The notes: generated by a model not told the origin, from the sequence alone. A stretch of 64,000 bases of DNA from an uncultured Bacilli bacterium (GCA_947591215.1 CANQCZ010000001.1:27399-91398); one strand, 5' to 3'; numbered from the stretch's first letter, positions 33,477 through 47,402 are shown. Program-made: numbers and translations.

Positions 33477-33938
33477 ATGAATCTTGAGGAATTGCAAGAC
33501 TTTAAATTTTATTTATCATTAAGCTTTGTGATAGTGTTATCATCTATACTTACTATCATTACGGTGGAAATTATAAAGCTAATTCTTAAAAAGAAAAAAA
33601 TAATCACCGAAGAAACAGACGCAGATAAAAAAGACCAGTTACTAATTAAAATCGGTCGATTTGTAGCGCTTCTAATTTATACCATAGTATATCTTATAAA
33701 AGAATTTCTTCTTAAGCATGATCTCATATTCAATGAAGCGTTATTTATCGGACTTCTTTCTGGAGGTGCAGTTACCTTAACAGTTGCTAAAGGATTATAT
33801 ACATCCTTTAGACAAAGTCAAAAAAAGAAAAAGGTGTTCGATAAATTAACTGAAGCGGAAAGTAAGTTAGAAGCTTTACAAAAAGAAGCGCTTGAAAAGC
33901 AAACGAAGATAATATTAACCAGAAAGGAGAGGAACTAA
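33477..33938 (+). CDS. Membrane protein (3 TM) with a C-terminal Lys-rich coiled coil; holin-like architecture
   Basis: RBS AAAGGAG upstream. TM segments, then …KVFDKLTEAESKLEALQKEALEKQTK. Confidence 0.5.
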   Translation: MNLEELQDFKFYLSLSFVIVLSSILTIITVEIIKLILKKKKIITEETDADKKDQLLIKIGRFVALLIYTIVYLIKEFLLKHDLIFNEALFIGLLSGGAVTLTVAKGLYTSFRQSQKKKKVFDKLTEAESKLEALQKEALEKQTKIILTRKERN

Positions 33939-33939
33939 C

Positions 33940-34605
33940 GTGAAATTATTAATGTCATCAATTATTGTACCTAAAATACAACTCCAATATATAAGGGATA
34001 GCAATAAAATTTTTAGAGTAATATCTGAAAGCATTGATCCATTATTTAAACAATTGTTATCTGATAAAAGTATTCGTGTGCAAGTATGGTTGGAACGTGA
34101 AGTTAGAAAATTATCTAATTCAAGAATAAAAAGAAGTTGGGTTCATTCATGCGATATGTCAAATAAAAGACCGACCAAGTTATTTACTAACGGAGAGTAT
34201 AATTATGGTGGTGGCAATGGCTGGGGTTGGAAAGGTAATGATGTGCCATCTTATACAACAACGAATGGAATTGTACCAACTGAATTTGAGGTCACATTAT
34301 CAGATATACAAAATGATTTATTAGTTATAAAGTTTCCTGTAGTTGATATATTTAGCAATATTTTAAAAAAGAAAAAAAGTGGCACATCCGCTAAAGATGG
34401 TGATTTGATTGAGGATTTAGCAATTATATCTAGAGGACGAGCCACGTACCAAATTATAAGAGCTAAATTAGTAGTTAATTATGCTGGTAAAGTCATAATG
34501 AGTGAACCAAGTAATTCGATTATGCTTGGGATTCATAGGAAAAAAGACGCTGTCTTTGATTCGAAAAACTTAGAAAGTTTTATAAAGATCGGAAGGTTCA
34601 TTTAG
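33940..34605 (+). CDS. Hypothetical protein (221 aa)
   Basis: GTG start 6 nt after RBS AAAGGAGAGG, adjacent to the previous stop. No recognised family. Confidence 0.5.
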   Translation: MKLLMSSIIVPKIQLQYIRDSNKIFRVISESIDPLFKQLLSDKSIRVQVWLEREVRKLSNSRIKRSWVHSCDMSNKRPTKLFTNGEYNYGGGNGWGWKGNDVPSYTTTNGIVPTEFEVTLSDIQNDLLVIKFPVVDIFSNILKKKKSGTSAKDGDLIEDLAIISRGRATYQIIRAKLVVNYAGKVIMSEPSNSIMLGIHRKKDAVFDSKNLESFIKIGRFI

Positions 34606-34775: not shown

Positions 34776-36323
34776 ATGAAATCATTTACACTTAAAGACA
34801 AAACAAATAAAAACATTAATATTGAAACAGCGAAGTTGGATATTGAAAATTCACGTCAAGAAGATATTTCGAAGCGTACGTTATTTGCTAAGCATTTTAT
34901 TAACGATGATGGAACTTACACTATGGAAGTAAGTCCATTCCCAATTCATTATTACGATACTAAAACTAAATCTTATGAAGAGATTGATAATACCCTTGAA
35001 GAATCTAATGGTAAGTTCTCAATTAAAAAAAATAAGATGAAATTATCATTTAATAAAGAAATTAGCGATGATGCTCCATTGTTTAATATCGAAAAAAAAG
35101 GACATCGTTTTCAACTTTTTTATCTTGGTAAAAAAGAGAAGGTTGGAAATAAAGTTTTAAGAAAAGTAAAAGGGAAAACTAAACGTTTTACAAAACAGAT
35201 AAGTAACTTAACTTATGAAGAAATTGAACCAAAAATCGATTTAGAATATAGCGTTCAATACAATAGAATTAAAGAAAACATTATTATTAAAGAACGGCAA
35301 GAAAGCTATGAATTTTCTTTTTTAGTAAATGTAGGGACATTAACTGTCAGTTTAAAAAAAGATGATTCATGTATTGAATTAGTAGATGCACATCAAGAGG
35401 TTCAATATATAATTCCCTCACCGATCATGTTTGATCAAAATAATAATTCTTCTACCGATTTAGGATATGAAATCGAAATAAGTGAAGATGGTAATCTTAT
35501 TTTCACCTTAAAAGCAGATGCTGATTGGATCAATTCTAATGAACGGGCTTTTCCCGTCGTTATTGATCCGCAAGTTGTGATAACAATTGATGATAATAAT
35601 ATCACAAAACATTTTCAGATAAAAAATAATGTTGCTTCAGTAGCGGGTACCAAGGGATATATAGATAATTCATCGTCATCGAATGCATATTTAATTGCTA
35701 TTGATGTAAGTAGTCTCTTATCGACAAAAATATCTTATGCTGAACTGATTTTTGAAAATGCTAATACTATGCCAAATAGTGCGTCGATACAGGCAAAGTA
35801 CTACAATATTAATAATGATGAAGTAAATAGTTCTTCTTTTACGATTAATACATCTAAGGAAAGCAATTTTACAAGTTTCACAGGACCAACATCAGGAAAA
35901 GCCTCACTTATTATGCCGGGAGCTTTAAATAAATGGATAAGCGAAAAAAAACAAATTGGAGCATTATTATTTAGATCGACAGGTTTATATGCTGGTTCAT
36001 ACACTTTTTATCCACCGACATTAAGTATTAAATATACTTTACAAATTTCAGCTCCTAGTTTTTATATCAATTTGAAAAATGATTGTATTACAGAAATCGT
36101 TACTGGCGCTGACGTCGGATTAAGATACGCTGCTAGAGAAAAAGGAGTTTTAACTACTTATGTCGATCAAACAAGTAGTAAAGTTTATCAAATTTTAAAT
36201 ATACAAGACAGGATTTATACGCGAAGAAATAATAACGATTTAGATAATTGGAACGAGTGGGAAAAACATAGTTTACGGGCTAAATTACAAAATGGTAATT
36301 TGTATTTAACAGATGAAGATTAA
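34776..36323 (+). CDS. Hypothetical 515-aa protein co-oriented with, and 15 nt upstream of, the Rhs gene (putative Rhs partner/accessory protein)
   Basis: RBS GAAAGGAAAA upstream. No signal peptide. Beta-rich, Asn/Ser-rich sequence. Tight linkage to rhs suggests an operon. Confidence 0.55.
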   Translation: MKSFTLKDKTNKNINIETAKLDIENSRQEDISKRTLFAKHFINDDGTYTMEVSPFPIHYYDTKTKSYEEIDNTLEESNGKFSIKKNKMKLSFNKEISDDAPLFNIEKKGHRFQLFYLGKKEKVGNKVLRKVKGKTKRFTKQISNLTYEEIEPKIDLEYSVQYNRIKENIIIKERQESYEFSFLVNVGTLTVSLKKDDSCIELVDAHQEVQYIIPSPIMFDQNNNSSTDLGYEIEISEDGNLIFTLKADADWINSNERAFPVVIDPQVVITIDDNNITKHFQIKNNVASVAGTKGYIDNSSSSNAYLIAIDVSSLLSTKISYAELIFENANTMPNSASIQAKYYNINNDEVNSSSFTINTSKESNFTSFTGPTSGKASLIMPGALNKWISEKKQIGALLFRSTGLYAGSYTFYPPTLSIKYTLQISAPSFYINLKNDCITEIVTGADVGLRYAAREKGVLTTYVDQTSSKVYQILNIQDRIYTRRNNNDLDNWNEWEKHSLRAKLQNGNLYLTDED

Positions 36324-36338
36324 TGGAGAAAATAAATA

Positions 36339-39300
36339 ATGGACAAGGATTTTCAAGATATTGAGAGAGTTTTTTATAATGGTAATGAAGTTGAAAGAGT
36401 ATTTTATAATGGTCAAGAAATAGTGAAAAACATCTATTATCGTTTTTCTAATGAAAAAAGCCGCATTGGACAAACTGAATTAAGTTATCAATGTGGGGTA
36501 GGAGAGGCAAAAGTAAATGTTTATACAGGACGCCTATCTTTAATTCATCCGGATATTAATATAGGCGCGGGTAATTTTGAAATCGGGATATCTCATATTT
36601 ACAATAGTTCTTGGTCAACTAAATTTGATAATGTGATGGGAAATGGTTGGAAACTTAATTTACAGCAATATTGTTATCCATATGATGATAACGATGAAGA
36701 AAGACTTCTTGGTTATGAAAAAGGAGATTATGTTTATATAGATGCTGAAGGTTATAAACATCGTTTCGTTATATATAAAGAAAAAGATGGTGTAGCATAT
36801 TATTACGATGATGCAAAAAATAATTTAATCTTAAAGAAAATATCAGAAAGCAAATTAGAGATCAGCAATCCAACAGGCTCTACATTATGCTTTAACAAAG
36901 ATGGTCAATTATATTCTATTGTTTCTCCATACAATACAACTATTGTTAAACATATTGAATACAAGGATGGTAAAATAGATTCTGTATATGATAAACGTAA
37001 CTCAAATCGAGTGCTTTATTTTAAGTATAATAAAGAGGATTTACTAAGTGAAATTAGTTGTGAAGAAAATTCAATTATATTAAAGACATTACATTATTTT
37101 TATGATTCAGATAATAATCTTATTAGAATCACTAAGCAAGTTAATACATCTACTAAGACGGTAGCTTTTTTTAGCTATGATTCAAATGATTTAATTCATA
37201 TAATGGATGGAGAAGATAATTCGGCAATATTATTCTCATATAAAAATTTCGATGATAAATATGTAACTAATGTTAAAATCGGCACAGGTAAAAAAACATT
37301 TTCAAATTCTTCAAAAATTGATTTAAAAGAAATTAAAAATGAAACAAAGTTTGATTATGAATCGACCTCTAATACTTTAGTGACGACTGAAAAGGGAATC
37401 ACATATCTTTATCAATTTAATAAACGTGGATTTACTTCAGCAATTTTTGAAAAAGATGGTCATAATTTACGTACTTTAACAAAGGAAAATGGTTGGTCAT
37501 TAAGCAATGGTAATCAAACTACCTCAATCAATGGAAAACATAGTGAAATTGTATATGGTGAAACTTACTTATTAACTAAAGAAAAATTGTACAATTTTCT
37601 AAATATATTTGCTGGTGCAACTAATTATTCTTATGTTGAAAATTATACGTTATCATTTTGGATTAAATTGAAATCAGTAGTATATAATGATGTTTTGGCA
37701 AGATTAAAGATTATTACTGTTCCAGCTCTTCAAGAAGTAACCTTAAATTTTAAAAGTAGGATTGATCATACAGCTTATGATGTGTGGCAACATGTGACTA
37801 TCCCGATTGATTTCCAATTATTCGAAGCTAATTATGATAATTCTGTGGACTATAGTGAATCTGGAATTCAAAATGAAGTCCCTAAATTAAAGGAAAACAT
37901 AAATGAAATGCGAATTAGCTTAGAAGGTATTCCATTGGATTCCTCTTTTGAAATTGCAGATATTCAAATAGCGGTTGGATCTCAAAATCATTTAGTTATA
38001 GCTGGAAAAAATTTTGAAGATGCCGATTATATTTATTGTTATATTGGTAATAAGTGTGAAAAGAAGGCTATTAATTCAAACTTTTTTATGACTTTGCAAG
38101 ATGTCATTTTAACATATCTTAATATGCATAAATGCGCAAATGAAAATGATAAATTTGATATGGTTGCTTGCGATGGAACAAAAGTAATCGAGGTAAACGC
38201 TATATCGTTTACAACACCTAAATTTAATGAATGTAAGTTTAAATTTTTAGATGATGGTAAACCAAATTTCTATTTAGTATGTAAAAATCGTAGAGCTCAA
38301 AGTCAATGGTTAGTAACCGAAACTGATTTTACATTTCGCAATGATTATATCGAGCAAAGAACTTCGGTTGATGTGATAGAAAAATATTATATTTGTATTG
38401 ATGAAAATAGCAAATCTAGAAATTATAGCTGGTATTTTTACAATGGTTTATTAAAAGCTCAAAAAGACGCATATGGAGTAATCACTGAAAATAAATATGA
38501 TGATTATGGAAATCTTATTGAAATAGTTATTTACAATGAAAATGATTCAAATAAACTAATTAGAACTATTACATTTGATGAATTTCAACTTAATGATTCG
38601 AAATTAAGTAAAGTTCAATATCAAATAAATGACAATGGCGTTTTAAGTAAACAAACTTTTAATTTACCATTTTTTCAATTGGATTCTGAGACTGTATTTA
38701 ATGGTGATACGACTTTATATGAAAAATGCTACATATATGATGATATTTTTGGTGACAAATTAACTAAAATATCTGTAAAAAGCGATTTGAAAAAGATTGA
38801 TACGTATTTTAAATATACTGATGAAGGATATTTAAATGATATTTCTGATGATTCTAAAAATCATTATCAGTTTGAGTATGATATTTTTGGAGACATTACC
38901 TCATATAACTTGATTGATGAAGATAATAATGTTACTGAATTATTGCAAAAAGAAAATATAAACTATGATAATCATTTCGAGGCCATTATCGAAAAATATC
39001 CATCGGATAATTCATCATTCACTAGAGAGTATTTGTATGATCAATATAATAGACTTACATCGATTCGCGAAAATGAAGAACATATTAAATTTGATTATGA
39101 ATCAAACGAAGAAAGCCGGATGTTGGCTCAAGTAGAATATATTGATGACCCGTATACAAAACAAAAAAATGTTATTAAGTATGATTCAAATACTGGATTA
39201 TATACGTATAGTACAATTAATGAAGAGAGTAGTACTAGTAATCAAGGTTTATCAATCGTTCAAATTGGACAAAATAAAACAAAATATATATTATGTGATG

Positions 39301-41066
39301 GAGAAAACAAAACTGAGCGAATCAGTGAATTTATTTATGATGATAATGAAGAAATAGAAAACAAAATATATCTTAACCCACGTCTTGCAAAGACTAAAGA
39401 TTACCTAGTCGATAATGAATCTGAAGAATTTAATTTTTCGTATGAATGGGATGGATTAGGTAGATTAAAAAAACAACAATATTCTGATGAAACTAAATTT
39501 TATGAATATTCCTATAATGATTGTGGAAGAATCAATAAAGTTGAATTTCATTTTAATGAGAATAATTTTGTTTTTCAATATACATACGATTCTATAGGTA
39601 ATATAAAAACTATCAAGGAAAATATCAATAATGATAATAAAATAGAATATACTTATGATTCATTTAATCAATTATTATCAGAAGTTAATTCAAAATTAGG
39701 TATTAATAATAAATATACTTATGATTCTAAAGGAAGATTATATGAAATTAATATAAATAATTCTACAAAGAAAATTTTCAATTACCATAGTAAAGGTAGG
39801 CTAATAGAACTACAATCCGGTAATACGACCTATAAGTATACCTATACATCAAATGGTAATTTAGAAAAAATATATATAAATCAACTAGATACGCTAGATA
39901 CATTAGAGCATGTATTGATATGGGAAAGACATAGTTTACTTAAAGAATACGATAAAAATCAGTATTTCTATAATTATCAAGGAATAAGATATAAAAAGAT
40001 TGTTAATGGAATAACTAAATTCTATTATCTAAGTGGTGAAAAAATTTTAGGTGAAGATTGGTCAAATGGAATTAAAATACGTTATTTCTATGATGCAAAT
40101 GGTATTGCAGGTTTTACATATAAAGGAAAAACATATCATTACATAAAAGATATACAACAAAATATCAGAGCAATTCAAAAAGAATGTGATATAATATGTA
40201 CATACGAATATGATGCTTATGGGAATTGTTATACAGCAACTTATGAAGACATTGATGATATTGCCACCATAAATCCATTTAGATATCGTGGATACTATTT
40301 TGATGTGGAGACAGGACTATATTATTGCAACTCTAGGTATTATTCACCAGAACTATGTAGATGGCTTACACCTGATTCAATTGAATATTTAGACCCTGAA
40401 TCTATTAATGGCTTAAATCTATATTGTTATTGTTATAATAATCCAGTAATGTACGCAGATCCTAGTGGACATTTACCAGAATGGGCTTGGAAATTAATTA
40501 TTGGTACAAGTTTCATTTTAGTTGGTGCATTGGTTACAGCAGCTACTGCAGGAGCAGGAGCAACTTTTTGGGCAACCTTTGGTTCAGCATTATTAACATC
40601 AACTATTCAAACTGGAATAAGTGCTGCTGTTAGTGCTAGCCTTGGTTTTATTGTTGGAGGTATTTCCACTGGTACGTTGGAAGGTGCTTTTACTGGAATG
40701 ATTGATGGTACGGTTGATGGTTATATGTGGGGAGGTATTATTTCTGGCGGTTCGCAAATTCTAAGTGGTTTAATGAAAGTTGGAAATGGTATATCTTCTG
40801 GTAGGATTGAGGCATTGTATAAGTCTGAAAATTCAACAACATTATTTAATTATAATAATGCTGCTGGAAAGAGTAAATTCAGAATAGATGTCGCTAAAGG
40901 TAAAGTTAAATATCCCGGTGGCAAAACAGGTTTCTTGAGTGGGAAAGAACTATATGGGTTACATTACCATTTTGGTAAAACTAATTCTCTAAGGGAACTA
41001 CATAGATTCTTTACTCCTGGTGTTGTTAATGGATTTATTTCTTCTTTGTTAGATTATTTATTTTAA
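36339..41066 (+). CDS. Rhs/YD-repeat polymorphic toxin: Rhs core ending in …YCYNNPVMYADPSGH, then a roughly 197-aa variable C-terminal toxin domain
   Basis: Multiple YD repeats (YTYDSIGNI, YTYDSFNQL, YTYDSKGRLYE, YEYDAYGNCY), the RHS repeat-associated core (…FRYRGYYFDVETGLYYCNSRYYSPELCRWLTPDSI…) and a DPxG-type cleavage motif (ADPSGH) at aa 1373-1378. The sequence downstream of that point is unrelated among the five copies. Confidence 0.9.
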   Translation: MDKDFQDIERVFYNGNEVERVFYNGQEIVKNIYYRFSNEKSRIGQTELSYQCGVGEAKVNVYTGRLSLIHPDINIGAGNFEIGISHIYNSSWSTKFDNVMGNGWKLNLQQYCYPYDDNDEERLLGYEKGDYVYIDAEGYKHRFVIYKEKDGVAYYYDDAKNNLILKKISESKLEISNPTGSTLCFNKDGQLYSIVSPYNTTIVKHIEYKDGKIDSVYDKRNSNRVLYFKYNKEDLLSEISCEENSIILKTLHYFYDSDNNLIRITKQVNTSTKTVAFFSYDSNDLIHIMDGEDNSAILFSYKNFDDKYVTNVKIGTGKKTFSNSSKIDLKEIKNETKFDYESTSNTLVTTEKGITYLYQFNKRGFTSAIFEKDGHNLRTLTKENGWSLSNGNQTTSINGKHSEIVYGETYLLTKEKLYNFLNIFAGATNYSYVENYTLSFWIKLKSVVYNDVLARLKIITVPALQEVTLNFKSRIDHTAYDVWQHVTIPIDFQLFEANYDNSVDYSESGIQNEVPKLKENINEMRISLEGIPLDSSFEIADIQIAVGSQNHLVIAGKNFEDADYIYCYIGNKCEKKAINSNFFMTLQDVILTYLNMHKCANENDKFDMVACDGTKVIEVNAISFTTPKFNECKFKFLDDGKPNFYLVCKNRRAQSQWLVTETDFTFRNDYIEQRTSVDVIEKYYICIDENSKSRNYSWYFYNGLLKAQKDAYGVITENKYDDYGNLIEIVIYNENDSNKLIRTITFDEFQLNDSKLSKVQYQINDNGVLSKQTFNLPFFQLDSETVFNGDTTLYEKCYIYDDIFGDKLTKISVKSDLKKIDTYFKYTDEGYLNDISDDSKNHYQFEYDIFGDITSYNLIDEDNNVTELLQKENINYDNHFEAIIEKYPSDNSSFTREYLYDQYNRLTSIRENEEHIKFDYESNEESRMLAQVEYIDDPYTKQKNVIKYDSNTGLYTYSTINEESSTSNQGLSIVQIGQNKTKYILCDGENKTERISEFIYDDNEEIENKIYLNPRLAKTKDYLVDNESEEFNFSYEWDGLGRLKKQQYSDETKFYEYSYNDCGRINKVEFHFNENNFVFQYTYDSIGNIKTIKENINNDNKIEYTYDSFNQLLSEVNSKLGINNKYTYDSKGRLYEININNSTKKIFNYHSKGRLIELQSGNTTYKYTYTSNGNLEKIYINQLDTLDTLEHVLIWERHSLLKEYDKNQYFYNYQGIRYKKIVNGITKFYYLSGEKILGEDWSNGIKIRYFYDANGIAGFTYKGKTYHYIKDIQQNIRAIQKECDIICTYEYDAYGNCYTATYEDIDDIATINPFRYRGYYFDVETGLYYCNSRYYSPELCRWLTPDSIEYLDPESINGLNLYCYCYNNPVMYADPSGHLPEWAWKLIIGTSFILVGALVTAATAGAGATFWATFGSALLTSTIQTGISAAVSASLGFIVGGISTGTLEGAFTGMIDGTVDGYMWGGIISGGSQILSGLMKVGNGISSGRIEALYKSENSTTLFNYNNAAGKSKFRIDVAKGKVKYPGGKTGFLSGKELYGLHYHFGKTNSLRELHRFFTPGVVNGFISSLLDYLF
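40308..40472 (+). repeat. rhs core-end repeat, master copy (inside rhs)
   Basis: About 162 nt encoding ETGLYYCNSRYYSPELCRWLTPDSIEYLDPESINGLNLYCYCYNNPVMYADPSGH. It is repeated four more times downstream at about 93 % identity. Confidence 0.9.
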
Positions 41067-41081
41067 TTATTGGGTGATATT

Positions 41082-41417
41082 ATGAGAATTGAATCTTTAA
41101 AGCAACTTTATGAGATAATATTAAAAAAAATGCCGAGTTATAAGATAGTGTTAAATGAAAGCAATTTAATTATTGAAAATTCGGCGAATCACTTTATTAA
41201 AATAGTTTTTAACCATGGTTTCTTTGATGTTTATATTGATAATTTTCATTATTATGATGTTGATACGTGGGATATAGAAGACACTATCGAGTCTATTATG
41301 ACAGAAGAATACATTTTATTTAAGAATAATACAGTTTATACTTTATCGCAAAAACAATACGAAAAAGTTATAAAAAAAGATAAGAAGGCATGTATAATTA
41401 AATTTAATAATGATTAA
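41082..41417 (+). CDS. Candidate immunity protein for the main Rhs C-terminal toxin
   Basis: Small ORF starting 16 nt after the rhs stop and co-oriented. No family recognised. Position is typical of Rhs immunity genes. Confidence 0.5.
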   Translation: MRIESLKQLYEIILKKMPSYKIVLNESNLIIENSANHFIKIVFNHGFFDVYIDNFHYYDVDTWDIEDTIESIMTEEYILFKNNTVYTLSQKQYEKVIKKDKKACIIKFNND

Positions 41418-41616
41418 TATTTATGATGTGTCATTTCCTTATAAAATAGAAAAAATCAATAGTGGATGGGTTTATTGTAGGTAGGTTCTATGGTAGAGCA
41501 ATTAAAAAGAGTTTTAAATAGTGTTAAAGAAGAGATAAAAGTGAAAATTTCATTTGGGATAAAGAAAAAATAATTTCTGTTGCGAAACCTAAAAATGGAA
41601 GAATTATAGTCCAGTC

Positions 41617-41931
41617 GAAACAGGACTATATTATTGCAATTCTAGATATTATTCACCAGAACTTTGTAGATGGTTAACACCTGATTCCATTGATTATTTA
41701 GACCCTAAATCTATTAATGGATTAAATCTATATTGTTATTGTTATAATAATCCAGTAATGTACGCTGATCCTAGTGGACATTTTGTGATAACACTGATTG
41801 CAGGTTTAACAATATCGTTTTTAATAGGTGCTATATCGAGTACAATTAGTCAATATGTTCAATATGGTGAAGTAAACTGTCTTCAAGCAGGAGTTGATGG
41901 ATTGTTTGCTTTAGCAAAAAATAGAAAATAG
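41617..41931 (+). other. Orphan rhs C-terminal cassette 2: core-end repeat (41617-41781) fused to a short, probably truncated 50-aa C-terminal domain. No in-frame start upstream of the internal Met.
   Basis: In-frame stop at 41590-92. Then ETGLYYCNSRYYSPELCRWLTPDSIDYLDPKSINGLNLYCYCYNNPVMYADPSGH, followed by FVITLIAGLTISFLIGAISS…AKNRK and a stop at 41929-31. Confidence 0.7.
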
Positions 41932-41980
41932 TGAAAGACTTTCACGAGCAAAATAATTTTATAAAAGGAGGATGTTAAGT

Positions 41981-42430
41981 ATGAAAATATATTATAAATT
42001 AAGTGATAATTATAATCCAAATTATATAGTAAAATATGATGATAACTCTTTTGGAGCTTATGGAGTGTATTTTGATTTTCAAGTTGTATTAACATCAGCT
42101 GGTTCAGTTATTTTAAATTTTGATCTTTATTCAAAGAGATGTGAATCATGTGAAGGATATCTAGCAATTAAAATTAATAAGAAAACTAAATACGAAAATA
42201 TAGATATTGAAAATTATAGTAATGGTGAATTATTAATTGAACTAGATGATTTTGAAAAAGAGGTACCTATGTGTGAATACTTATTAGACGGTAAGTTTAA
42301 ATATGATATTAACAAATCACGAATTTGCATAGGTAATATTAATAGTAACGAAGTTATTATGTTTGGCAAAGGTCAATATGCATCCTTTCAAAATGGCAAA
42401 TTAATTGGTGTAATTATAGATTTAAAATAA
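41981..42430 (+). CDS. Candidate immunity protein of cassette 2
   Basis: RBS AAAGGAGG is 9 nt before ATG 41981. 150 aa, contains CESCEGY. Follows the orphan C-terminal domain. Confidence 0.5.
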   Translation: MKIYYKLSDNYNPNYIVKYDDNSFGAYGVYFDFQVVLTSAGSVILNFDLYSKRCESCEGYLAIKINKKTKYENIDIENYSNGELLIELDDFEKEVPMCEYLLDGKFKYDINKSRICIGNINSNEVIMFGKGQYASFQNGKLIGVIIDLK

Positions 42431-42470
42431 ATAGCAAATTACTTTCACAAGCACAATATGTAAGTTTACT

Positions 42471-43196
42471 GAAACAGGACTATATTATTGCAACTCTAGG
42501 TATTATTCACCAGAACTATGTAGATGGCTAACACCTGATTCAATTGATTATTTAGACCCTAAATCTATTAATGGCTTAAATTTATATTGTTATTGTTATA
42601 ATAATCCTATAATGTACGCAGATCCTAGTGGGCATTTTGGAATATTAGCATTGATTGCAATAACTGGATTTTCAATGCTAATAGGTGGAGCTGTTCAGCT
42701 GATATCAAATGCGATGGCTGGTAAAACTGGAAGTGAATTATGGCACGGAGTTGCAGGAGCGACCTTAGGAACTGGTGCTAATGCCTTAGCATTGTGGTTG
42801 TCACCATTTACGGGCGGAGCATCATTAGCTTTTGCTACAGTAATATCGGCTGGCATTCAAACTGGTGTTGATACGCTTGAAACAATCATCAGAGGTGAAA
42901 AAAATAAATGGATGGCAAACTATTGCTGATTTTGGTATTAATTTTGCAACAATATTTGCAGGCAACTATATAGGTAGCAAATTAATTTCAATAAATTAAG
43001 GATGGTTTCAACCTAAAAAGTTTTTGAGTGTTTTTACAAAATCATATGGTCAAAAAATCTTATTGCAATCATCAATAGGTGCTGGACTATCTGGAATAGT
43101 AAACTTAATAAAAAAATTTGATTTTAATAGACTTGAGTTGAAAGACTTTATTCCAAACATACCTGTTCCAATGATTCCAAATATTTTCGGAGATTA
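42471..43196 (+). pseudogene. Orphan rhs C-terminal cassette 3, disrupted by two frameshifts
   Basis: Core-end repeat 42471-42635 (…MYADPSGH), then a Gly/Ala-rich hydrophobic region. The reading frame breaks at about 42929 (…MANYC stop) and continues in the +1 frame (WQTIADFGINFATIFAGNYIGSKLISIN) and then another frame (GWFQPKKF…PNIFGD stop 43196). Confidence 0.65.
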
Positions 43197-43211
43197 AGGA
43201 GATTAAAAATT

Positions 43212-43598
43212 ATGATTATAAAAGATAAATTAATAAAAGAATATCCATTAACTAAAAAAATAGATTGCTTTTTTGAATGTTTTGAAGTTATAAAAAGAAG
43301 ATATGTTATTTTCTATGATGAAAAAATTAATAAAGAAAATATTAAATCTTTACTTGATGTATTTAATGAAAATACAAATAATAATTTTTCTAAGAAAAAA
43401 ACATTAATTGTTGTTGCATGTACTAATGAACAGTTTAATAAAGAAGATTTATTATTTTTTAATGGTGTAGATACATTTATTGTATATTATTTAATAAATG
43501 AAAATACAAATGAAATTTATTTTAATGATCAAAAGATGTTGTGGTTTAGTATAGATTGGAAAAAAATAATTAAAAAATTTAATGAAATATTAAAATAA
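43212..43598 (+). CDS. Candidate immunity protein of cassette 3
   Basis: RBS AAGGAG upstream. 128-aa Lys/Asn-rich protein with no family. Confidence 0.5.
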   Translation: MIIKDKLIKEYPLTKKIDCFFECFEVIKRRYVIFYDEKINKENIKSLLDVFNENTNNNFSKKKTLIVVACTNEQFNKEDLLFFNGVDTFIVYYLINENTNEIYFNDQKMLWFSIDWKKIIKKFNEILK

Positions 43599-44019
43599 TT
43601 ATCAAATTACTTTCACAAGCAAAATAATTTTATCAAAGATAACGCTATTAACAATTTTATTCATTTAAAACAAATAATTAGAGATATGCTCATAAAAATA
43701 TTAAATATAAACAAAAGAAATAATAATATGATAAAATATAGATGTCTAGTTCTATGCTTTATTTTACGAGAGGTAAAATGAAACAAAAAGAATTATATAA
43801 GACAGCAATATATAACTAGAACTACTGGTATTGCAGCAAAAGCTTTAAAACTATTAGGTCAAAATTTAGTTAAACAATAGAATAAAATGGTTATTGACCA
43901 AGTAGGGAAAAATTTTAGGAAAGCATTATCATTTGGTGGAATAGCATTATTATTTGGAACTGTTTTGGTAAAAGATTACTATACGACTGGATTAATGATA
44001 ATTTCTAGGGGGACTTAAT

Positions 44020-44493
44020 ATGTTAGATAATATTTTGATTATAACAATTTTATTTTCTATAGTATTAAGTTTTTTAATAGTTAAAGTTTGGCGAAAAAAA
44101 CACTTTGTAAAATCGTTATACATTGATCAAGGCGTTTCAATAACATTTTATGTCATTGCGCTTGCTTTCACAATTGTCTTACTAACAATATATTACATAC
44201 AAGCATATAATTGGTTGTTTTTGCTAATGCTATTATTATATGATTTATGTTCATTATTTATATTTTGCATTTTAACAACTACTTGTATTTATTTAAAAGA
44301 TAACGTTGTGATTAAAAAAAATATTTTTATTACAAAAAAAATATTGCTTAATAAAGAAACGAAAATAATCGAAAAAGCAACCAAAACAATTATTAAATCT
44401 AAAAATAAATCCATTTCTATTAGTTCAAGACATTTAAATGGAAGTATAAGAAGGTTTATATATGATATTAAGATAATAATTAATGAGTCATAA
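44020..44493 (+). CDS. Membrane protein (4 TM), possible orphan membrane immunity protein
   Basis: RBS AGGGGGA upstream. Hydrophobic. Sits between cassettes 3 and 4. Confidence 0.45.
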   Translation: MLDNILIITILFSIVLSFLIVKVWRKKHFVKSLYIDQGVSITFYVIALAFTIVLLTIYYIQAYNWLFLLMLLLYDLCSLFIFCILTTTCIYLKDNVVIKKNIFITKKILLNKETKIIEKATKTIIKSKNKSISISSRHLNGSIRRFIYDIKIIINES

Positions 44494-44535
44494 TAAGATA
44501 ATAAAGTCGAATAGCATTATATTAGATTTTTTTAC

Positions 44536-45191
44536 GTTACTATTCACTAGAACTATGTAGATGGATTACACCTGATTCAATTGATTATTTAGATCCAGAA
44601 TCTATTAATGGCTTAAATCTATATTGTTATTGTTATAATAATCCAGTAATGTACGCTGATCCTAGTGGACATTTTGCAATTAGTTTAACATTACTTGGAT
44701 TAATTGTTGGAGCCGTGGTTGGAGCAACAATAGGAGGAATCGCTGCTTATAATATTGCAAAGGATCATGGTGCTGAAGGATGGGAATTATTTGGATGGAC
44801 TATGGCAGGTATAGTTGGAGGAGGTATAATTGGTGGCGCTTTAGGTGCGGGAATTGGAGCGATTGTTACAAAAGTGACTGGAGTTATAGGTTTATCAATA
44901 ACGAAATATTCTATTATACCAATTAAAGGTACAACAATTTTAGGAGATATGCCTGGATATATTGGAGCAGCACAAGCAACGGGTTTAGGATATTATTTAA
45001 TTTCAAATAAATTGTGGGAAAACTTAGATGCAACTCAACGCTGGCTTAACAATATGCAATATATTAAAGATGCTAATACATTAGGATCTCAATTTGCGTT
45101 GGTTCCTGATTTTGTGGTTAAAGCAGGCACAACATTATGGCAGGAAATACAATATTTAATTGAAAACGGCATTCCTTGGATATTATTCTAA
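44536..45191 (+). other. Orphan rhs C-terminal cassette 4: 5'-truncated core-end repeat (44536-44672, starting at RYYSLELCRW) plus a roughly 170-aa C-terminal domain
   Basis: …NPVMYADPSGH, then FAISLTLLGLIVGAVVGATIGGIAAYNIA… (Gly-zipper hydrophobic segment), then a variable domain. Upstream in-frame stop; the only Met is the internal MYADPSGH. Confidence 0.7.
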
Positions 45192-45218
45192 AAACAATTT
45201 GGAGGGTAAGTAATAATT

Positions 45219-45518
45219 ATGTATAATAATTTACTTTATAAGACATTTGATAAAAAATATAAAGAAAAATACAATAAATTTTTATTGTTGTGTAATAAAT
45301 ATAATGCAAAAATTATTAAATTTGATTATTACAAAAAAGTATTTGGAAATTTTGTAATTGAGATAGAATATAACGAAAAACATCACATAATTATAACGGA
45401 TAGAGGAGACATAATTTTTAATGGAAAATATATATGTGATAACTCGTATCTTAGTACAGGACAAGACACATTTAATAAATTACTTGAGATGATAGAAAAA
45501 AATCTGTTTAACAAATAA
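45219..45518 (+). CDS. Candidate immunity protein of cassette 4
   Basis: RBS GGAGGG upstream. 99 aa. Confidence 0.5.
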   Translation: MYNNLLYKTFDKKYKEKYNKFLLLCNKYNAKIIKFDYYKKVFGNFVIEIEYNEKHHIIITDRGDIIFNGKYICDNSYLSTGQDTFNKLLEMIEKNLFNK

Positions 45519-45685
45519 ATCACATATTGGTAAAATAAAAATTTTGATTATAGAAATCTAAATTTAAAAAACAACAAAAATAATTTAAAAAAATGAATAG
45601 TTAGCAAATTACTTTCACAAGCAAAATAATTTTATTAAAATTAACTTTATTAACAAATTTATTAGTTAAAATAAAAATTAATTAT

Positions 45686-46510
45686 GATGTTGAAACAGGA
45701 CTATACTATTGCAACTCTAGGTACTATTCACCAGAATTTTGTAGATGGATTACACCTGATTCAATTGAATATTTAGACCCTGAAAGTATTAATGGCTTAA
45801 ATCTATATTGTTATTGTTATAATAATCCTATAATGTACGCAAATCCTAGTGGACATGCTCCTTGGTGGAGTTGGGCATTATCAGGATTACAATTAGTAGC
45901 AGGAGTTGCATTATGCTTTGTTCCAGGCATGCAAGGATTAGGTGTTTCATTAGCAATTGGCGGTGCAACTGGATTAATTATGAATGTGTTAGAGCCACAA
46001 TTAGCTCAAGCAATTGGAGGAGTAGGATCTATGGCAAATGGCTATGGCGCCATTTCTACAGGTATTAGTTTGATGAGCTTAGGTGGATGGGTAGTAGTTG
46101 CTGGTTTGTGCTTAACAGTAATTGGTTTTGGAACAATGGCTTTTGGTGCAAACGAGGTTATAGATGCTATGACTGATACAAATTACATTCAAAAGTGGAC
46201 TGGTATGAGTGATTCGGCATATGCTTGGTCATATTTGGGATTAAACTTTGCATCAAGCATCGGTCAAGCAGCAGGTAATGTGTATCGTTTACATGCTACA
46301 AGAGAAATAAGATTTAATCATAGTGGCACTGAAATTAGAGGATATAGATATCGTGATAGAAAAGGTAATCCATTCTTTGATTTTGATTATCCACATAAAG
46401 ATATACCTTATAATCATTGGCATGGATGGGATGGGCCTAGATTAACTAATAGAACAGGAGATCATTGGAGTTACTTAAGATTAATTTTGTGGATGTTAGG
46501 AGGAATGTAA
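45686..46510 (+). other. Orphan rhs C-terminal cassette 5: core-end repeat (45686-45856) plus a roughly 217-aa C-terminal domain
   Basis: …NYDVETGLYYCNSRYYSPEFCRWITPDSIEYLDPESINGLNLYCYCYNNPIMYANPSGH, then APWWSWALSGLQLVAGVALCFVPG… (hydrophobic Gly-rich segment), then a His/Trp-rich domain (…HWHGWDGP…). Confidence 0.7.
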
Positions 46511-46864
46511 ATGAAATTAAAACGTAAATTTAAACATAATTATGGTAGTGACATACTAAATGAAGCTTATGAAAAACTTTTTAATGGAGAACATATGTCC
46601 TATGAGGAATTTGTAATTATGCTTTCAACAAATGATGAACTATATTTTTATTATATTGAAAAAGATGGTGAAAAAGAATATCAAGTTGAACATTGGGGTG
46701 ATGGCACTGTATATATGTGTGTTACTAGATATGAAGATGGTAAAAAGATTCTAGAAAGAAATGAAAAATTTAATTCTATTATTGAACTATTAAATGATTT
46801 TAGAATTGAAGGTAAAAGCATATACGAAATATGGCCAGATGTTATGTTTGCAAAGTCAAGATAA
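46511..46864 (+). CDS. Candidate immunity protein of cassette 5
   Basis: RBS AGGAGGA is 7 nt upstream. ATG immediately follows the cassette-5 stop (TAAATG). Confidence 0.55.
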   Translation: MKLKRKFKHNYGSDILNEAYEKLFNGEHMSYEEFVIMLSTNDELYFYYIEKDGEKEYQVEHWGDGTVYMCVTRYEDGKKILERNEKFNSIIELLNDFRIEGKSIYEIWPDVMFAKSR

Positions 46865-46991: not shown

Positions 46992-47402
46992 ATGGAATTC
47001 GTTATTTATAAAGAAAATTTTGTTGAAGAATTTCACAAAAACTTTTTACCATTATTTTCAATTAAAAAATTAAAAAAATTAAATTGTTATGCTCCTAACC
47101 ATGGCTATTTATGGAATGCTTGTGAACATAATCTAGTTGAAAATTTAAAGGGCAAAGATGCAATGTTAGCATATGATAATATTGATAAGACAGGTGCAAT
47201 AGAATTTCAATATGATAATGGATTTATGGGTGATGATATTTCAAAACCACTTTCAAAAGAAAATGATAATTCAATAAAAATTCAAAATAATGGTTTGATT
47301 GAATTTTATGTAATTGGTTTAAATTTCTCATGGTGTTATATTGTGACACACGAGCCAGATGGTTGTGGTCCATATTTTATTATTAATAAAAATAAAAGTT
47401 GA
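46992..47402 (+). CDS. Hypothetical protein (136 aa), possible orphan immunity gene
   Basis: RBS AGGAGAAA upstream. Last gene of the AT-rich island. Confidence 0.45.
   Translation: MEFVIYKENFVEEFHKNFLPLFSIKKLKKLNCYAPNHGYLWNACEHNLVENLKGKDAMLAYDNIDKTGAIEFQYDNGFMGDDISKPLSKENDNSIKIQNNGLIEFYVIGLNFSWCYIVTHEPDGCGPYFIINKNKS

Follow-up and report, generated by a model that had tools for sequence, protein, structure and literature searches.

In polymorphic toxins, pre-toxin domains occupy the slot between the scaffold and the toxin (PMC3113570). The Agrobacterium type VI secretion system (T6SS) DNase Tde1 needs a GxxxG zipper to permeabilise or cross the cytoplasmic membrane of its prey (PMC10240207). 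The Rhs shell of Tse5 from P. aeruginosa delivers a hydrophobic cargo to membranes (PMC10684867), and the B. inaquosorum teneurin-like protein (BiTLP) holds in its YD shell a hydrophobic C-terminal domain (CTD) that permeabilises membranes (PMC13018210). In T6SS effectors of the prePAAR/transmembrane domain (TMD) type, such as RhsA of P. protegens and Tse6, transmembrane (TM) helices are proposed to insert in the target membrane and carry the toxin across (PMC7773334). In the ABP toxins of Gram-positive bacteria, proteolysis frees the C-terminal part, and the helix now at its N-terminus is proposed to drive toxin entry (PMC13460014). Earlier work has described pre-toxin and entry modules, glycine-zipper segments active on membranes and single Rhs cargos that are hydrophobic. 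Toxin entry into Gram-positive cells has been called a major open question (PMC13460014), and the exit of Rhs cargo from its shell and its route to the cytoplasm have been called open as well (PMC11606950). Here we describe an Rhs toxin locus in a 64,000-nucleotide stretch of DNA (the window) from an uncultured Bacilli bacterium (GCA_947591215.1, CANQCZ010000001.1:27399-91398), in which the C-terminal region (CT) of the Rhs protein and those of four downstream cassettes each open with a hydrophobic, glycine-zipper leader. All positions given for the window are counted from its first letter, and all features lie on the strand presented.

The Rhs/YD-repeat toxin gene (36339-41066) encodes 1575 aa and matches the Pfam models RHS_repeat (E = 1.3e-10) and DUF6531. 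The NCBIfam model Rhs_assc_core (TIGR03696) covers residues 1291-1378 (E = 3.8e-22), and its end coincides exactly with the motif DPSGH (40458-40472), the presumed autoproteolysis motif that closes the core; the CT runs from 40473. Cleavage at this motif would be expected from what is known of the Rhs family. The core end (...NNPxMYAxPSGH) is present in five in-frame copies, with [DN]PSGH at 40458, 41767, 42621, 44658 and 45842. Each copy lies within a 200-nucleotide direct repeat (40297-40496; five copies, 75-88% identical, four of them downstream of the main gene) that comprises the last ~55 core codons and ~8 CT codons. Every repeat copy opens a different CT, which is followed by a small open reading frame (ORF), and the layout is a classic array of orphan CT/immunity cassettes. 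The locus therefore has both hallmarks of Rhs/YD-repeat polymorphic toxins with C-terminal displacement cassettes, namely YD repeats with a core ending in a PxxxxDPxG-type motif, and a variable CT/immunity pair with orphan cassettes that share the core-end tract. Because the tract of DNA homology stops ~8 codons into the CT, ahead of the leaders, the leaders belong to the variable part of each cassette.

All five CTs of the window have a TM-grade segment, defined as a 19-residue Kyte-Doolittle window scoring at least 1.6, that begins no more than five residues after the motif, with maxima of 2.08-2.29. By comparison, in the remaining long ORFs of the window only 3.6% of positions have the start of such a segment in the next 12 residues, and the probability that five of five CTs would start in this way by chance is about 6e-8. 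The first 80 CT residues are 44-56% G/A/S/T and 1-7% charged (excluding cassette 2, whose CT has 49 aa), and the remainder of each CT is polar. The leaders are only 14-27% identical in pairwise comparisons among the five, and no BLASTP match was obtained below E = 0.35. The leaders vary in length: that of cassette 4 has ~75 aa, that of the main CT ~100 aa and that of cassette 5 ~100-150 aa; the polar toxin domains behind them span ~60-95 aa.

Relatives were collected with the core end alone as the query, so the hits were not selected by their CTs. Among 5.8 billion proteins there were 1626 hits, of which the best 120 were listed (identifiers beginning with P), and 80 loci (identifiers beginning with L) came from a scan in which each species was represented by one genome. 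These loci come from gut and rumen Clostridia, Bacilli, Christensenellaceae, Oscillospiraceae, Anaeroplasma, Acholeplasmataceae, Haloplasma and a few others. Protein hits, genome loci and the window together yielded 148 non-redundant CTs of at least 120 aa, which represent the best-scoring hits of one Bacillota Rhs clade. A TM-grade segment begins within 12 residues of the motif in 121 of the 148 CTs (82%), which come from more than 60 genomes, and within 30 residues in 129. Averaged over the 148 CTs, residues 11-100 contain 14-21% Gly, 10-18% Ala and 5-14% charged residues, and the sequence beyond is polar. As a control, we inspected nine distinct E. coli Rhs CTs, none of which starts in this way (maximal 19-residue Kyte-Doolittle score below 1.2, charged residues 16-29%). 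The CTs of the clade have a median length of 191 aa with an interquartile range of 175-199 aa, and this narrow range suggests that what fits into the Rhs shell limits their size.

Glycines in the leaders are spaced periodically. When the first 100 residues of the 148 CTs were compared with composition-preserving shuffles, Gly-Gly pairs were in excess at lags 4, 8 and 12 (ratios of 1.52, 1.39 and 1.27; z = 13.1, 9.4 and 6.2) and depleted at lags 2 and 3. From this pattern, "glycine zipper" is an accurate label for the leaders; the CTs of the window alone give z of ~2.2-2.4. As a motif, that is, (G/A/S)xxxG repeated in a hydrophobic helix, the glycine zipper is present across the 148 CTs. Trp makes up 8.5% of the first 10 CT residues against 2.3% overall (~4-fold), in starts such as LPEWAW, APWWSW and MPEWLKW, and such a start would be in keeping with aromatic anchoring at the interface of the membrane.

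These results bear on a preliminary description of the locus, made from the DNA sequence alone, which had proposed that the main CT and cassettes 3, 4 and 5 begin with TM-like, glycine-zipper-like segments of about 80 aa. The hydropathy and the shuffle-controlled periodicity agree with the TM-like and glycine-zipper character. All four named CTs have the segment, and cassette 2, which had not been listed, has it as well; a fixed length of 80 aa did not hold, given the range from ~75 to ~100-150 aa. Character was said to be conserved without conservation of sequence, as the low identities and the lack of significant BLASTP matches confirm. The description named absence from homologous loci as grounds for abandoning the idea, and the 121 related CTs with the segment show that it is not absent.

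Predicted structures add detail to individual leaders, and those of the main CT and cassette 5 are modelled confidently by AlphaFold2 (AF2) as helical hairpins or bundles. The leader of the main CT (40473-40781; maximal score 2.08) begins with the Trp-rich LPEWAWK; three long uncharged helices come next, which an AF2 model built on the family alignment places at residues 8-31, 35-71 and 74-108 with pLDDT ~90; the C-domain of this model has low confidence. In the family alignment this leader has the conserved motif DGYMWGG..GGSQILSG, and H169 is invariant in the polar C-domain of ~94 aa that follows (40782-41063). The cassette 4 leader (44673-44900) consists of a helix, an AYNxxxxGxxGWELFG loop and a glycine-zipper helix. 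For cassette 5 the AF2 model (pLDDT 89.8, pTM 0.77) has five to six helices over residues 3-147, the first four uncharged, and then a beta-rich domain of ~70 aa; its leader (45857-46297) starts with the Trp-rich APWWSW. Residues G97, N99, E100, Y122, Y126, G128, N130 and S133 of this leader are invariant in the family alignment. Because the polar residues N99, E100, N130 and S133 are among them, the cassette 5 leader is a real domain and more than a hydrophobic stretch. In its C-domain (46298-46510), H187 and H189 are invariant. A Foldseek search with the main CT model returned nothing below E = 0.38, and the fold searches gave generic helical bundles only, apart from a weak match (E = 0.39, probability 0.84) of the small cassette 5 C-domain to PT7 (8owu_B), a metal-dependent DNase of 76 aa (bioRxiv 10.1101/2021.10.19.465003). 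Judging from this match, the cassette 5 C-domain may be a small nuclease.

Leaders and toxin domains assort independently. BLAST clustering of the first 85 CT residues gave 43 clusters and that of the last 85 residues gave 98; the largest grouping under single linkage (N cluster 0) is probably inflated by shared composition, and the case for modularity rests on explicit pairwise breakpoints. Similarity of the cassette 5 CT to those of P0088, P0107 and L014 is limited to residues ~51-155, at 47-58% identity, and the sequences beyond are unrelated. L014 and L034 have unrelated leaders and share the last ~78 residues (114-191 and 112-189, respectively; 52% identity), which form an Ntox37-like domain. 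Cassette 4 has only residues 1-48 in common with P0096 and L034 (57-64% identity), and P0078 is the only other CT with its polar C-domain (44901-45191); the remaining carriers of this leader have different C-domains. One toxin domain thus stands behind two different leaders, and one leader precedes several toxin domains. Recognised enzymes found behind leaders include a TNT NADase in P0116 and Ntox37 in L034, and L029 combines, in this order, a glycine-zipper leader, PT-HINT and Tox-REase-7. The mosaic of leaders and toxins, together with the leaders ahead of TNT, Ntox37 and PT-HINT plus Tox-REase-7, bears out the earlier suggestion of a separate module that precedes the variable toxin part. 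That this module acts in membrane insertion or translocation, as was also suggested, would be a reading of the sequence, and we weigh it below.

The leaders fall outside catalogued families. When 1.84 billion cluster representatives were searched with a profile built from the cassette 4 leader, 188 matches were obtained at E <= 0.001, which correspond to ~188 protein clusters at 50% identity. Where the protein is long, the distance of the match from the C-terminus is 170-200 residues, and an Rhs core end immediately precedes it in nearly every case. The families of the main CT and the cassette 5 CT (14 and 61 relatives, respectively) were found only in Rhs proteins or orphan cassettes. Among the Pfam and NCBIfam models, no significant family covers any CT or leader of the window. 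PT-TG (PF14449) had no match at E <= 1 in the five CTs of the window and none at E <= 0.001 in the 148 clade CTs, and Pfam-based scans detected no VENN in either set. The Pfam Gly-zipper families (Omp, YMGG and OmpA) were not matched above their cut-offs by cassette 4 (15.8 bits against 25) or L029 (16.3 bits against 27), and one of the 148 CTs matches the Gly-zipper_YMGG model (E = 5e-05). Searches of PDB sequences with single CTs and with profiles recovered no solved relative of the leaders; only the Rhs core was matched.

The five immunity candidates linked to cassettes in the window lack a TM-like segment and are thus soluble. They are encoded at 41070-41417 (main CT; no family match), 41972-42430 (cassette 2), 43212-43598 (cassette 3), 45219-45518 (cassette 4) and 46511-46864 (cassette 5). 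The cassette 3 candidate is conserved beside the same CT type elsewhere, with ORFs 46-61% identical to it following that CT type in L057, L039, L006 and L028. In related loci, where the downstream "immunity" ORFs were called mechanically, 42 of 66 have TM segments or lipoprotein-type signal peptides. The proteins following CTs that are hydrophobic throughout are membrane-bound or exported in 19 of 23 cases and soluble in four, and those following CTs with a polar C-domain are soluble in 13 of 27. From this split, toxins of three kinds occur in the clade: some are likely pore-formers, others probably act at the outer face of the membrane, and others are neutralised in the cytoplasm. All three intact CTs of the window are of the last kind. 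Where relatives combine a wholly hydrophobic CT with a membrane-bound immunity protein, the segment is probably the pore-forming toxin itself.

We propose that the leader is a pre-toxin module for membrane insertion or translocation that the Rhs shell shields until delivery, and we put the probability of this reading at about one half. Each CT would comprise two parts, a cassette-specific leader of ~75-150 aa, with a Trp-rich start and uncharged glycine-zipper helices, and a small polar toxin domain. After autoproteolysis at DPSGH the cargo would begin with the leader and would be kept inside the Rhs shell, and the shell would shield leader helices that might otherwise aggregate. After delivery to a neighbouring cell with a single membrane (Gram-positive type), the leader would exit the shell, and its Trp-rich start and glycine-zipper helices would enter the cytoplasmic membrane of the target. 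There it would either tether the toxin domain at the membrane or carry it across to a cytoplasmic target. In the producer, the soluble immunity protein would neutralise the toxin domain. We infer the cleavage, encapsulation, insertion and translocation steps; observed are the location and hydropathy of the leader, its Gly periodicity, its predicted helices, its assortment independently of the toxin, its restriction to Rhs proteins and the solubility of the immunity proteins. In favour of the proposal we count the TM-grade starts that E. coli Rhs CTs lack, the Gly and Trp patterns, the independent assortment, the occurrence of leaders before cytoplasm-acting enzymes, the soluble immunity proteins that go with polar C-domains, and the helical AF2 models. 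Tde1, the Tse5 shell, the BiTLP CTD and the ABP toxins serve as precedents.

Several points weigh against this proposal. An even number of membrane helices would leave the toxin outside the cell. The Rhs protein has no signal peptide, nor a TM-like segment in its first 120 residues, that would account for its export from the producer. The TM calls come from Kyte-Doolittle hydropathy alone and not from a trained predictor, and the C-domains of the window have no recognised catalytic family in Pfam, NCBIfam or the PDB. Because about two-thirds of the downstream ORFs in related loci encode membrane-bound or lipoprotein-type proteins, transfer to the cytoplasm is not a universal outcome. The confinement of the leader to Rhs proteins is equally compatible with a role linked to the shell.

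It is possible, though on the unlikely side for this locus, that the glycine-zipper region is itself the toxin, a pore-forming or depolarising effector like Tse5-CT, TspA, EsxX, the CdiA-CT ionophores or the BiTLP CTD, with the polar tail as an accessory. Glycine-zipper periodicity is typical of depolarising toxins (PMC12744356, PMC11630599), and the hydrophobic CTD of the Bacillus YD-shell protein permeabilises E. coli from outside (PMC13018210). The 19 of 23 wholly hydrophobic CTs with membrane-bound or exported immunity proteins point the same way, and for these relatives a leader that is itself the toxin is likely. The window also contains, between cassettes 3 and 4 and without a CT of its own, a gene (44020-44493) for an immunity-like multi-TM protein of 157 aa with TM-like segments at residues 1-26 and 35-92 and no family match; it has the look of a membrane immunity protein left over from a pore-forming cassette that has been lost. 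Against a toxic leader in the window stand the soluble nature of all five immunity candidates and the invariant His residues in the polar C-domains. Moreover, the same leaders are joined to TNT, Ntox37, REase and many unrelated C-domains, which would be unexpected if the leader alone killed and set the specificity of immunity.

Next, the segment might serve the shell itself, as a packing, retention or exit ("PreT") element that lines the inside of the cocoon, aids autoproteolysis or keeps the cargo unfolded. In S. suis WapA, the N-terminal part of the CT has been suggested to have a similar role (PMC12704120). The position immediately after the cleavage site, the near restriction of cassette 4 leader matches to proteins with an Rhs core end and the tightly bounded CT length would all suit such an element. 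We nonetheless consider it unlikely. E. coli Rhs CTs manage without such a segment, and five leaders with so little identity would all need to fit one shell after cassette exchange. TM-grade hydrophobicity, GxxxG spacing and a Trp-rich start are traits of membrane proteins and not of packing, and AF2 gives the leaders as self-contained helical bundles.

A role in the producer is very improbable; the segment would there be an internal membrane anchor, or would serve to export an Rhs protein that has no signal peptide at its N-terminus. The Rhs protein and the 515-aa protein encoded upstream of it both lack signal peptides and TM segments, and no secretion system was seen in the window, which would suit such a role. 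The segment lies, however, ~1380 residues into the protein, where it would be enclosed in the shell by analogy with solved Rhs and Tc structures; the immunity proteins are cytoplasmic, and orphan cassettes have leaders without any export context. Finally, although the region is rich in Gly and Ala and single-linkage clustering can overstate relatedness, an artefact of chance or low-complexity composition is effectively refuted by the recurrence in the clade, the chance estimate for the window, a periodicity above that of composition-preserving shuffles and the conservation of polar leader positions.

Some of the orphan cassettes are decaying. Cassette 2 retains a CT remnant of 49 aa (41782-41931; core-end repeat 41606-41805) that begins with the hydrophobic helix (maximal score 2.29). 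The cassette 3 CT (42636-43197; score 2.14 at its hydrophobic start) has a frameshift near 42900, as P0020 aligns in frame 3 over its residues 147-291 and in frame 1 over residues 290-378; the CTs of intact homologues have 182 aa. In a metagenome contig from ENA (L085) that is 98% identical to window positions 40141-44672, a different sequence replaces the cassette 2 region (41757-42470) and the main CT is frameshifted. Comparison of the two sequences shows that cassettes have turned over recently between strains. At the end of the array, a DUF4275 protein (46992-47402; E = 6e-9) may be the product of a further orphan immunity gene.

The locus lies in a low-GC island (~27% against 36% GC), flanked by housekeeping genes of a low-GC Bacillota chromosome that include PriA, NusA, IF-2, RNase J and deformylase. 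No type VII secretion system genes were seen in the window. Directly upstream of the Rhs gene is the gene for the 515-aa protein (34776-36338). A split of one gene into this ORF and the Rhs ORF by a nonsense mutation was rejected, as the junction has two in-frame stops and a GGAG ribosome-binding site before the ATG (in the order TAA, GGAG, ATG). In L014 and L045, a domain homologous to the 515-aa protein is fused N-terminally to Rhs in a single ORF of ~1900 aa. The island opens upstream of these genes (33477-34605) with a protein of 153 aa (33477-33938), which has three TM-like segments and a charged coiled-coil tail, and a directly abutting ORF of 221 aa; neither has a match in Pfam, NCBIfam or PHROGs. 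The 153-aa protein was considered as a holin and this assignment was dropped, as none of the three databases supports it; a role in release would be only a guess.

Two other CT layouts occur in the clade. A minority of relatives (P0013, P0030, P0073 and L013:12486-12986) have the reverse arrangement, with a polar toxin domain, PNWQEGF-like repeats and a single TM helix at the extreme C-terminus. Others (L006:11955-12479, L018:4481-5035, L039:5400-5966, L050:1381-1929, P0001 and P0052) share a recurrent alternative start, HFWDxVFDxxFIxWxIYDL…DWKNWVALGxDIxFAxxPFVPG, which is amphipathic, stays below TM grade and has no PT-TG match. This start may mark a second type of pre-toxin module in the clade, a soluble one.

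In full-text searches of the literature, we found no description of clade-wide, TM-like glycine-zipper leaders that stand at the start of Bacillota Rhs CTs and are shuffled among toxins. A recurrent, shuffled, membrane-helix-like leader placed exactly at the autoproteolytic N-terminus offers a concrete and testable hypothesis for toxin entry. The leaders also define several uncatalogued domain families, among them the cassette 4 type (~188 clusters) and the cassette 5 type, which should improve the annotation of Rhs cassettes in gut metagenomes. If leaders do translocate their cargo, they could be used for protein delivery into Gram-positive bacteria. More broadly, and only tentatively, the Rhs/YD-shell toxins of gut Bacillota, including wall-less relatives, may carry a large uncatalogued repertoire of self-inserting glycine-zipper entry leaders. 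Small enzymatic toxins would then cross the cytoplasmic membrane of targets that have only one membrane, without a dedicated receptor or injection machine, and the shell would be a chaperone that makes hydrophobic cargo transportable.

Like the pre-toxin domains PT-TG and PT-VENN and the entry domains of CdiA-CT, the leaders lie between a delivery scaffold and a toxin and are exchanged independently of the toxin, and the order of leader, PT-HINT and nuclease in L029 matches the order described for pre-toxin domains (PMC3113570). They differ from these soluble helical domains in being TM-grade hydrophobic glycine zippers, and they have no PT-TG or VENN match. The independent assortment of an N-terminal sub-domain of the CT is shared with CdiA-CT; the scaffold here is Rhs instead of CdiA with two-partner secretion, and the boundary is DPSGH instead of VENN. 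CdiA-CT enters by way of a specific integral membrane protein in the target cell; no receptor is known for the leaders.

Tde1 resembles the leaders in its GxxxG repeats ahead of an enzymatic toxin. It is, however, a T6SS cargo of a Gram-negative bacterium, has an adaptor protein but no Rhs shell, carries a far shorter zipper and is unrelated in sequence. The ABP toxins likewise have a cleaved helix ahead of a toxin domain, but that helix is single, cationic and amphipathic, a separate protease makes the cut, and there is no shell.

Closer in scaffold are Tse5-CT and the BiTLP CTD, where, as here, an Rhs/YD protein carries a hydrophobic CT (in our locus its encapsulation would be expected by analogy). 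Aligned with BiTLP (9pt5_A), our A5 profile continues beyond the core end for ~40 positions and reaches into the beginning of the CT. Each of these two is described as a single membrane-damaging toxin, whereas here a shuffled leader precedes polar domains, and a Tse5-type membrane immunity protein has no counterpart among the five soluble candidates of the window. In prePAAR/TMD effectors, the TMDs are at the N-terminus beside PAAR and need Eag chaperones. A Pfam scan of the window Rhs revealed no PAAR, and its hydrophobic region comes only after residue 1378; the helices here lie inside the cleaved CT, and the shell would be their presumed shield.

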